The notes under the pieces were generated by a model. That model saw only the letters and a list, made by a program, of their open reading frames with translations. It made no database searches and was not told where the DNA came from. This document shows, one piece after another, positions 55,132 through 58,080 of a stretch of DNA of 64,000 nucleotides. Numbering within the stretch: position 1 is the stretch's first letter; each line of letters starts with the position of its first letter. The translations under genes were made by a program, and so were the position numbers. Location of the stretch: assembly GCF_056746865.1 (NCBI RefSeq), contig NZ_CM163382.1. The stretch is one strand, 5' to 3'.

Positions 55132-56082
55132 GATGAGAGATCTCCGTTGATTTGGATTGACTTCACATCATTAATCACTGCGGTAAAACTTTACGGCATC
55201 CCGCCATTGAGCAACGCCAATGGCTCCTGATTAAAACAGAATGAATCCCCCACGAAGAAAAGATAAACCTACACGCAGGGTAAAACACACAACAACGGCA
55301 TAAATGGTTTTTAAAAACTACAAAGCCCGAAGGGAAACGGATCAACAGAACGTGCAAACAAAACACCAAAAACGCAATCAGAACGCTTTCTGCTGCTGTG
55401 AATCAACAACAATACCAAAACCTACAGCTTAACCACAAAACTCAATCACAGAGCCGAATAGCGCGTTTAAAACCTGTTTACAGATAACCCTGCCCCGAGA
55501 ACAAAAACCACCAACATCAGAATCGATTTTCTTATCCTGAAAACGTTACTTTTCAACACACCATAAAAACGATTAACCATCGATAACGTAAATCTCATCT
55601 GAATCAAAACACCAGAACCAATCATCACGCTTTTTCTGAAAAGAGCCTTATGATGAAGATAATCACCTTGCACTGAGAAAAAACACCAGGGCCAGTTAAT
55701 CATCTCATCAATCTTATCGCTACAAAATCATCCATAAAACCATTTAACAAAATCATCGTAAGCACACAGTAAATCACGCCAGGTTATCTCAGCCGGATTT
55801 GCGTTTTACATAAAAACACTTGTCTCAGGTTAACGACTAAAAACACGAAAACTCATAAAAGGTTAAATGTAACATCAGAAAAATAGAATATCATATTGAT
55901 TGCTTAAACAGGAAAGATTGTTTTGTAGTAGCATTAAGCTGATTTTAGTTAACGTAAAAACAGGACTGACAGGTTTACTAAACTGGATGTGTATCAGACA
56001 AAGCAATGTGTATAACAATACTTAATGAAAACACTTGTAGAATTGTTTATGAAAACATGTGTATGTCTGGTAAAACACTTAG

Positions 56083-57277
56083 GGAAGGTGCGAACAAGTC
56101 CCTGATATGAGATCATGTTTGTCATCTGGAGCCATGGAACAGGGTTCATCATGAGTCATCAACTTACCTTCGCCGACAGTGAATTCAGCAGTAAGCGCCG
56201 TCAGACCAGAAAAGAGATTTTCTTGTCCCGCATGGAGCAGATTCTGCCATGGCAAAACATGGTGGAAGTCATCGAGCCGTTTTACCCCAAGGCTGGTAAT
56301 GGCCGGCGACCTTATCCGCTGGAAACCATGCTACGCATTCACTGCATGCAGCATTGGTACAACCTGAGCGATGGCGCGATGGAAGATGCTCTGTACGAAA
56401 TCGCCTCCATGCGTCTGTTTGCCCGGTTATCCCTGGATAGCGCCTTGCCTGACCGCACCACCATCATGAATTTCCGCCACCTGCTGGAGCAGCATCAACT
56501 GGCCCGCCAATTGTTCAAGACCATCAATCGCTGGCTGGCCGAAGCAGGCGTCATGATGACTCAAGGCACCTTGGTCGATGCCACCATCATTGAGGCACCC
56601 AGCTCGACCAAGAACAAAGAGCAGCAACGCGATCCGGAGATGCATCAGACCAAGAAAGGCAATCAATGGCACTTTGGCATGAAGGCCCACATTGGTGTCG
56701 ATGCCAAGAGTGGCCTGACCCACAGCCTAGTCACCACCGCGGCCAACGAGCATGACCTCAATCAGCTGGGTAATCTGCTGCATGGAGAGGAGCAATTTGT
56801 CTCAGCCGATGCCGGCTACCAAGGGGCGCCACAGCGCGAGGAGCTGGCCGAGGTGGATGTGGACTGGCTGATCGCCGAGCGCCCCGGCAAGGTAAGAACC
56901 TTGAAACAGCATCCACGCAAGAACAAAACGGCCATCAACATCGAATACATGAAAGCCAGCATCCGGGCCAAGGTGGAGCACCCATTTCGCATCATCAAGC
57001 GACAGTTCGGCTTCGTGAAAGCCAGATACAAGGGGTTGCTGAAAAACGATAACCAACTGGCGATGTTATTCACGCTGGCCAACCTGTTTCGGGCGGACCA
57101 AATGATACGTCAGTGGGAGAGATCTCACTAAAAACTGGGGATAACGCCTTAAATGGCGAAGAAACGGTCTAAATAGGCTGATTCAAGGCATTTACGGGAG
57201 AAAAAATCGGCTCAAACATGAAGAAATGAAATGACTGAGTCAGCCGAGAAGAATTTCCCCGCTTATTCGCACCTTCC
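56083..57277 (+). mobile_element. IS5 (1195 bp), complete, 4-bp target duplication TTAG
   Basis: Ends GGAAGGTGCGAACAAG... and ...GCTTATTCGCACCTTCC; TTAG at 56079-56082 and 57278-57281. Confidence 0.92.
56151..57131 (+). CDS. insH: IS5 transposase InsH
   Basis: [61 protein letters not shown]... Confidence 0.92.
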
Positions 57278-58080
57278 TTAGTAGAAAATACGTGTATAAC
57301 ACTTACTGAAATGCTTAGTAAAAACACTTAGTAAAATATGTGTAGAATTATCTATTTAAAAAGATATGTATATAACACTTAATAAAAACATGTGTATATA
57401 GTATCATACCGACATTCTCAACATCTTCAGACACTCATGCAGACTGAATGTTCGTTTCAGTTTTTCACGGCCAGCATGGGGATTTTTGTTCTGAAAACGG
57501 AGCAGATTTACTCTGGAATTATTTTTCTGTCCCCGTATTTCAGGCCCCAGAAAAGACAATCCGAAGCAAACCGTTTGTCAGCTTCCATATCATCTTTTAC
57601 CCCCGGAAAGTGATCGCGTTTTACAACCAGAATGACAGCCATACTGATTATGTCGTCTCCCGGCCCCCTTCACATATAACATGCATGCCTGTCATTGCTT
57701 ACTGCTCCACATGACAGGATTTCACATACAGGATGCGCATTCAGTGTTTTTATCGCCACTATAACAGACAGATTACTGTCGCTTTTACTCTTCAGATTGT
57801 TAATCTGACCACAAGAACAGTCGAACAGTACAACGACACACCCAAGGAGGATATGAGCAGTAGTTGATAGCATGTTTTAATTTATTATGAATAGATCAAG
57901 AATAGATCGTGAATAGTTAGAGAATAGTTCTTCAGCATCTCACAGAGTGATCAAGCCTTGAAGTGATTGCTTTTTGAACACAAGTCCGGATGCAATGTTT
58001 TTTTGTTAACTTCCTTGCATATTCGATTTCCATGTGATAGTGAAAATCACCAGAAGAGAATGCGATTGAGGCGTAATCAG

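Follow-up and report, generated by a model that had tools for sequence, protein, structure and literature searches.

Within a 64,000-nt stretch of contig NZ_CM163382.1 (NCBI RefSeq assembly GCF_056746865.1), hereafter the window, a non-coding spacer carries a real and conserved run of ~12-13-nt direct repeats that has been cut in two by the insertion sequence IS5. The array lies between a yfjJ/yagK-type gene, predicted to encode an HUH nuclease, and a divergent gene, here called X, whose product carries a predicted ribbon-helix-helix (RHH) domain at its C-terminus. A conserved 12-nt element with the family consensus TAAYWYCAGAGT is located in the same spacer. Our tentative reading, to which we give somewhat less than an even chance, is that the array consists of conserved, copy-number-variable, iteron-like protein-binding repeats in the control region of the core module of a CP4-like island. 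In that role it would most likely be a docking platform for the yfjJ-like nuclease or for X.

A direct-repeat array split by IS5

Removal of IS5 and one copy of TTAG restores a continuous array, from ~55956 to 57410, of twelve A-tract-led segments of 11-28 nt each, with a modal length of 24. The segments resolve into ~18 sub-units of 12-13 nt in two interleaved flavours, AAAACACTTAGTA and AAAAyAyGTGTAt. All units are direct and share the same orientation: within the 1,750-bp spacer, AAAACAC occurs 9 times against once on the other strand, ACACTT 6 times against none, and GTGTAT 5 times against none. The examples quoted in a preliminary description of this DNA were all found in place, namely GAAAACACTTGTAGAATTG (56027-56045), GTAAAACACTTAG (56070-56082), ACGTGTATAACACTTAC (57290-57306), GTAAAAACACTTAG (57319-57332), and ATGTATATAACACTTAA (57366-57382).

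The repeats proposed in that description are real and exceed what the composition of the region would produce. A 262-nt core (55960-56082 plus 57282-57420) was compared with 1,000 dinucleotide-preserving shuffles. It contains 42 pairs of identical 8-mers against 2.8±2.4 in the shuffled sequences, a count reached by none of the 1,000, and 72 pairs of identical 7-mers against 9.0±4.2 (0/1000). The largest family of 9-mers, with one mismatch allowed, has 7 members against 2.8±0.6 (0/300). The GC content of the array region is ~28-31%. Tandem Repeats Finder (TRF) reports a period of 13 with 5.2 copies (AAAACACTTAGTA) spanning the insertion point in the IS5-free allele, as well as a period of 12 at 57294-57336 in the right half. 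The self-match of the array peaks at a lag of 24, and the periodogram of its A-tracts peaks at 12 and 22.75.

The interrupting sequence is a simple IS5 insertion, as judged from its size, inverted ends, transposase, 4-bp duplication, and identical empty site. Copies of TTAG border it at 56079-56082 and 57278-57281, its inverted-repeat arms are 89% complementary, and its transposase open reading frame (ORF; 56115-57131) encodes 338 aa; matching sequences in other genomes are annotated as IS5 family transposase. The IS5-free allele is that of E. coli W2-5 (L001, 8001-9750), to which the window is identical at 1750/1750 positions after removal of IS5 and one TTAG, and the two sequences are 99.99% identical over the surrounding 11.8 kb. 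With TTAG on both sides and an empty site that is the same base for base, the earlier claim that the array was continuous before insertion holds. The junction between IS5 and the array was found in 0 of 5,426 complete E. coli genomes. Given this and the identical empty site, the insertion is a recent one that is confined to the source of the window.

Conservation of the array and the genes around it

The array spacer is present in ~1,865-1,870 of the 5,426 E. coli genomes, at up to 7-8 places per genome. The copies are almost all chromosomal. Four plasmid records and no phage records contain the spacer, and the possibility that it is an already-annotated plasmid or phage origin was rejected on these counts. 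For comparison, nine further alleles that are 66-95% identical in the array region were aligned. All nine retain the units and their orientation, and the repeats are thus conserved in IS5-free relatives. Differences between the alleles are insertions or deletions of whole units, ~25-50 nt in size, and the window allele is the longest of those aligned. At its X-side end, the array has a near-invariant block, GTATATAGTATCATACCGACATTCTCAACATC. In all alleles, the array keeps its place beside the yfjJ-like gene, whatever else flanks it, and the two stay together in alleles that contain no DUF3987 or alpA gene within 5 kb.

The product of this constant neighbour is labelled 'inovirus Gp2 family protein' in RefSeq. 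It matches Pfam YagK_YfjJ_C and REP_ORF2-G2P, together with phage replication-initiator families, and conserves the HUH motif (HYHVILLL) and the YxxK motif (YLVKxxTK). Structure prediction gives it a fold that matches the origin-binding/nuclease domains of parvovirus NS1, adeno-associated virus (AAV) Rep, and pMV158 RepB. The best structural matches are parvoviral Rep/NS1 domains, and one RepB match is a structure solved bound to direct repeats. The earlier likening of the array to iterons or operators is sound to this extent: it comprises several direct repeats in one orientation, beyond chance, and always adjoins an initiator-type HUH gene, though 850-1,100 nt away. The E. coli yfjJ-like protein also contains a ~40-residue insertion (residues ~153-189; S/P/D/K-rich; predicted local distance difference test score, pLDDT, <50) that is absent from the 190-200-aa homologues of other genera.

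The part of the spacer between the yfjJ-like gene and the array is A/C-rich on the plus strand (55200-55900), with an AT skew of up to +0.46 and a GC skew of down to -0.47, and is conserved between alleles. It is dotted with AAAACAC, which starts at 55282, 55360, 55606, 55680, 55813, and 55840. No spacer ORF is conserved between alleles, and the small ORFs at 57392-57613 and 57508-57642 are likewise not conserved. A similar A/C-rich stretch dotted with AAAAC is found upstream of X in Siccibacter (L023).

Gene X is next to the array in the window and in alleles L001-L005. Word-seed sequence searches with X retrieved relatives in E. coli only. The wider, unannotated X family was found by iterating a hidden Markov model over the ORFs of 73 loci collected by means of a YfjJ profile; it is present in at least 33 of these, always upstream of the yfjJ-like gene and divergent from it. 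The family spans Gamma- and Betaproteobacteria, with members in Providencia, Proteus, Morganella, Budvicia, Tatumella, Siccibacter, Vibrio, Psychromonas, Marinobacter, Oceanimonas, Alcaligenes, and others. X had earlier been called RHH-like, and the label is right, because Pfam RHH_1 (5/22 members) and RepB-RCR_reg (3/22) match at the C-terminus, as does MatP, to which the family profile has a weak match (E 0.009).

The proposed tie between the array and X fared less well. The array had been placed directly upstream of the RHH-like gene; it ends ~680 nt before the start codon at 58081, and the repeats proximal to X are those of a second array, GAATAG x4. This second array is conserved together with X in L003, L004, and L017, and a similar motif, ATAGTTC, is found upstream of X in Alcaligenes-type loci. 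Alleles without X lack the GAATAG x4 array. In alleles L006-L010, the main array is present without X and is followed instead by an unrelated minus-strand gene of 376 or 407 aa. X was detectable by DNA search in 560 genomes versus 1,865 with the array, leaving ~70% of array-bearing genomes without an X detectable in this way, blastn missing copies that are too diverged. Thus, an RHH gene stands next to the repeats, but the array does not abut its promoter and often occurs where no X is detectable, and the GAATAG x4 array is the likelier operator of X.

X-family genes are nonetheless linked to short tandem repeats just upstream of them. Tandem periodicity of 10-14 nt (p<=0.01) within 160 nt upstream of X was detected in 10 of 33 non-redundant loci, compared with 3 of 221 control upstream regions from X-bearing loci. 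The repeated motifs vary by lineage and often share a TAG core. In Providencia, Proteus, and Morganella, 4-6 units of ACGTAGTATTTT abut the ribosome-binding site of X; this unit is nearly the same as the E. coli unit TTTTACTAAGTG and has the same orientation relative to both genes. The predicted DNA-contacting strand of X reads VQINVKIS in E. coli and AVLNTYIS in Providencia.

The only perfect copy of the 12-nt element in the 64-kb window is ACTCTGGAATTA at 57510-57521. Allowing at most one mismatch, 50 of 77 loci from many genera have TAAYWYCAGAGT upstream of the yfjJ-like gene, in the sense orientation, against an expectation of ~2, and this holds with or without X. Its usual position relative to the yfjJ-like gene is -210 to -600, and matches elsewhere or on the opposite strand are at chance level. 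Conservation is limited to a 12-16-nt core, and no conserved -35-like block was found upstream of it in the compared loci; for these reasons, a site recognised or nicked by a protein accounts for the sequence pattern better than a sigma-70 promoter does. In CP4-57 of E. coli K-12 (L011, 7420-7431), a one-mismatch copy, TAATTTAAGAGT, is located 128 nt upstream of yfjJ on the sense strand, which is within chance for that locus.

In the window, ~100 nt separates the start of the array from this element. The element is ~1,100-1,170 nt from the start of the yfjJ-like gene in E. coli-type islands versus ~250 nt elsewhere, and this enlarged distance identifies the array and the A/C-rich spacer as a lineage-specific expansion between element and gene. 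On the yfjJ side of the element, arrays are also found in Limnobaculum (L029, 36-nt x4.4), Budvicia (L038, 8/16-nt x17), and Yokenella (L061, 24-nt x3.1); in all four lineages they start 100-145 nt from the element, and an AGTAT/AGTGT core is common to their units. Arrays on the X side are those of Morganellaceae, Vibrio (L067), and the E. coli GAATAG array. Across loci, tandem periodicity in the element-to-yfjJ interval (p<=0.01) was found in 7 of 48 against 0.5 expected, an enrichment that is far from universal. When repeats of exact 8-mers were assessed in the X-yfjJ spacers of distant loci, most results were non-significant, and enrichment was seen only in the windowed periodicity tests, so arrays are not a universal property of these loci. 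ATGTGT/ACACAT repeats in Providencia heimbachae and Brenneria were dropped as a lead because their orientation is inconsistent. The coordinates of the features are collected in Table 1.

Table 1. Positions in the window of the array, the IS5 insertion, and the associated genes and sites
Feature	Position	Strand	Description
yfjJ/yagK-type gene, 243 aa	54400-55131	-	HUH Rep-like nuclease fold (predicted); constant neighbour of the array
A/C-rich spacer	55132-55955		Non-coding, strongly strand-asymmetric, dispersed AAAACAC(C)
Array, left half	55956-56082	+	Six A-tract-led segments of 14-28 nt; from segmentation, repeat families and shuffle statistics
IS5 (simple insertion), 1195 bp	56083-57277	+	Terminal inverted repeats, TTAG duplication
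Array, right half	57282-57410	+	Six A-tract-led segments of 11-26 nt; ends in GTATATAGTATCATACCGACATTCTCAACATC
Promoter-like match TTAATA-17-TATCAT	57379-57407	+	Consensus match only; overlaps the last array unit; from L001 9049-9077
12-nt element TAATTCCAGAGT (family consensus TAAYWYCAGAGT)	57510-57521	-	Candidate HUH recognition or nick site
Second array, GAATAG(A/T)T(C/A) x4, 11-nt period	57888-57931	+	~150 nt upstream of X; TRF
Gene X, 269 aa	58081-58890	+	Helical N-terminal part, C-terminal ribbon-helix-helix

Possible functions of the array

From the anatomy, statistics, conservation, synteny, and protein folds described above, we infer a protein that binds the array, a recognition or nicking role for the 12-nt element, and a role of the whole in replication or transfer. 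The module would consist of the yfjJ/yagK-type HUH nuclease gene, the divergent RHH gene X, and TAAYWYCAGAGT, and the array would most likely correspond to the direct repeats called 'bind' in a rolling-circle origin. Cooperative loading of the HUH protein onto the repeats through its origin-binding domain, ~100 nt from its recognition or nick element, would govern one or both of two processes: the nicking, replication, or mobilisation of the island after excision, and transcription of the yfjJ operon. X would more probably use the separate GAATAG x4 array beside its own gene. By inserting into one TTAG, IS5 has parted about half of the units and yfjJ from the remaining half and the element; if array and element act together, the insertion probably disables their function, because 1.2 kb now separates them. 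The iteron-like reading is supported by the one-stranded, non-random character of the array with its 12/24-nt period and by its retention in alleles that are only 66-85% identical. Further support comes from its constant place beside a gene with a predicted HUH fold, from the 12-nt element upstream of yfjJ-like genes in many loci, from the excess of tandem periodicity between element and gene, and from the arrays of four lineages that start at a like distance from the element and share a unit core. Several observations weigh against it. The distance of 850-1,100 nt from the array to the yfjJ start is far for an autoregulatory operator; no consistent hairpin was found around the 12-nt element across the compared loci; and ~85% of loci contain no detectable array between element and yfjJ, so that an array is not required by the module. 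The Morganellaceae unit ACGTAGTATTTT, being on the X side and abutting the X ribosome-binding site, favours X as the binder, and conservation of the array could partly reflect recent spread of the islands rather than selection.

The arrangement resembles that of a known plasmid origin. The double-strand origin of pMV158 combines a nic locus with 'bind' direct repeats, which are served by the HUH initiator RepB, and a gene for the RHH repressor CopG accompanies them. Here too, an HUH protein has a predicted fold matching the RepB origin-binding domain, ~11-13-nt tandem direct repeats are located ~100 nt from a short conserved element, on the rep-gene side, and an RHH protein is encoded alongside. 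In contrast to pMV158, however, the HUH protein belongs to YagK_YfjJ_C / REP_ORF2-G2P rather than Rep_2, the element is chromosomal and integrative rather than a plasmid, and the degenerate units number ~18, compared with 3. The RHH gene runs divergently, encodes a much larger protein (269 aa versus the small CopG), and comes with a separate array, while the candidate nick element shows no evident hairpin. Tandem short repeats bound by Rep/NS1 beside a nick site are also found in the origins of parvoviruses and AAV, whose domains the yfjJ-like protein matches best in structure; these are eukaryotic viruses with 4-nt repeat units, hairpinned telomeres, and dissimilar site sequences. The P4 ori/crr and the ori regions of Staphylococcus aureus pathogenicity islands (SaPI) and phage-inducible chromosomal islands (PICI) resemble the locus in their island context of integrase, AlpA, and DUF3987 helicase (the yfjI-type DUF3987 gene of the window is at 51611-53497) and in having short repeated units in a non-coding stretch. 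In contrast to those systems, the array follows the yfjJ-like gene even where neither DUF3987 nor alpA is nearby, and the P4 iteron motif is unrelated to the motif of the array.

The RHH protein TraM recognises motifs spaced 12 bp apart in the transfer origin (oriT) by unwinding DNA, and RHH tetramers read these motifs (PMC3159463), which makes X a serious alternative binder. The array would then be an operator or a centromere-like platform whose 12-13-nt units are coated by X oligomers, as by TraM at sbmA-C or ParR at parC; the divergent promoters would be repressed, or X would be an accessory to the HUH nuclease. We regard this as unlikely, although much speaks for it: the RHH domain of X, the excess of 10-14-nt tandem repeats upstream of X-family genes, the near-identical units abutting X in Providencia, Proteus, and Morganella, and the presence in many array units of the TAG core of other genera's X-proximal arrays. 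The spacing of TraM motifs equals the period of the array, and the separate autoregulatory and functional sites of TraM would be paralleled by the GAATAG and main arrays. However, the array ends far from X, which has a co-occurring array of its own, and is retained in alleles and genomes without a detectable X. The Providencia and E. coli motifs are alike, but the predicted DNA-contacting strand of X differs between the two, and the window array is on the yfjJ side of the 12-nt element, whereas the RHH-proximal arrays of other genera are on the opposite side. Compared with F-like oriT regions, there is no MOB-family relaxase, type IV secretion system, or coupling protein nearby, and TraM motifs are inverted in symmetry, whereas all units of the window array are direct.

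Three further explanations dispense with an island-encoded binder of DNA. Replication slippage in a long non-coding spacer could have generated the array as an AT-rich minisatellite without function, which is improbable in our view. The number of units does vary among alleles, most related loci in other genera lack an array, and the IS5 insertion was tolerated; yet the motifs and their orientation are kept down to ~66% identity, near-identical units occur in Morganellaceae, and independent lineages have arrays at a similar distance from the conserved element. Quite improbable, too, is a site for a host factor, either a cluster of DnaA-box-like 9-mers or an AT-rich nucleation site at which H-NS or another nucleoid protein silences the island. 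The low GC content of the region is compatible with this, and IS5 inserts into AT-rich regions of the H-NS type. In the window allele, six sites with at most one mismatch to TTATNCACA fall on one strand within 213 bp, one of them perfect (TTATACACA), the remaining 14 such sites being scattered over the rest of the 17-kb locus. This cluster, striking as it is, was rejected because it is not conserved: other alleles keep only 2-3 such sites, none of which is perfect inside the array, and no enrichment was seen at distant loci (1.5 per kb versus 1.0 per kb). Strict single orientation and a unit structure are not expected of H-NS sites. Helically phased bending by A-tracts was also rejected, since the A-tract period is 12/24 rather than the 10-11 that in-phase bending would call for.

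The remaining explanation, that the array acts as RNA, appears very improbable. In that case it would belong either to a transcript running rightward or to the yfjJ operon, as a stretch of its long 5' leader, and its units would be targets of an RNA-binding protein or influence termination. On both strands, promoter-like hexamers flank the end of the array that faces X, and the 12-nt element could mark a transcription start; the promoter-like match in Table 1 is weak evidence, because the scan gave fewer promoter-like sites than shuffled sequences did. The spacer is strand-biased, G/U-rich in the yfjJ sense and C-rich and G-poor in the opposite sense. However, Rfam covariance models gave no relevant match to the IS5-free allele at E<=1, the insertion and deletion of whole units between alleles speaks against a defined fold, and the array has no internal complementarity because all its units are direct. 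Moreover, between E. coli and Providencia the orientation of the units relative to the nearest promoter differs, while that relative to the genes is kept.

Neighbouring features and significance

Downstream of X, a 315-aa minus-strand gene is followed by an operon of genes for GTPase, DUF905, DUF932, antirestriction, RadC, DUF987, and CbeA/CbtA proteins, an arrangement typical of CP4-like islands. What lies between the GTPase gene and the array or X varies: this slot is occupied by the 315-aa gene (58887-59834) in the window and by a 407-aa (L006, 5772-6995) or 376-aa (L009, 5777-6907) gene elsewhere, none of which has a Pfam, NCBIfam, or PADLOC match. The equivalent slot of K-12 CP4-57 contains abpAB and rnlAB, and the site may therefore be a hotspot for cargo or defence genes. 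Within the YeeP/YfjP-type GTPase, the C-terminal part (59926-60810) matches PADLOC LeoBC (E 3e-8).

On the other side of the module, broken short ORFs between the yfjI-type and yfjJ-like genes (53600-54300) correspond to a frameshifted partial IS110-family transposase annotated in L001 (6518-7115). A second non-coding stretch of ~1.6 kb (50015-51610) separates the DUF3987 (yfjI-type) gene from a YagK/YfjJ-domain gene (49448-50014); it contains neither the array motifs nor the 12-nt element. Farther away, a 606-aa minus-strand ORF (44242-46062) contains a near-perfect 99-nt tandem repeat (44810-45384) of 5.8 copies with 98% matches.

The searchable literature yielded no account of the array, of the 12-nt element, or of the X family, and a full-text search with diagnostic strings came back empty. 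For YfjJ/YagK and the Pfam names, the literature comprised gene lists and one preprint naming a core island gene: in Pseudomonas islands, an 'inovirus Gp2-like' gene is listed as probably core together with intY, alpA, and RadC, with no role assigned.

Iterons or operators beside a Rep-like gene are familiar, and the array adds a new example of them; the wider module is of more interest. With considerable reserve, we suggest that the CP4-like 'cryptic prophage' islands found in Enterobacterales and further Proteobacteria may carry a hitherto unrecognised origin-like module composed of the YfjJ/YagK HUH nuclease, TAAYWYCAGAGT, a MatP/TraM-like RHH partner, and lineage-specific iterons, and that the excised island may replicate by the rolling-circle mode or be nicked for mobilisation; the window array would then be the E. 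coli-specific iteron set, inactivated by IS5. As mutant and wild type, the IS5-split allele and the otherwise identical allele without IS5 make a natural pair. Islands with the array are present in about one third of E. coli genomes, and their cargo includes virulence, resistance, and anti-phage functions. The repeat array, the 12-nt element shared across genera, and the RHH partner together offer a handle on whether these islands own an origin, and the module would matter if it does work as the origin of these very common 'cryptic' islands.

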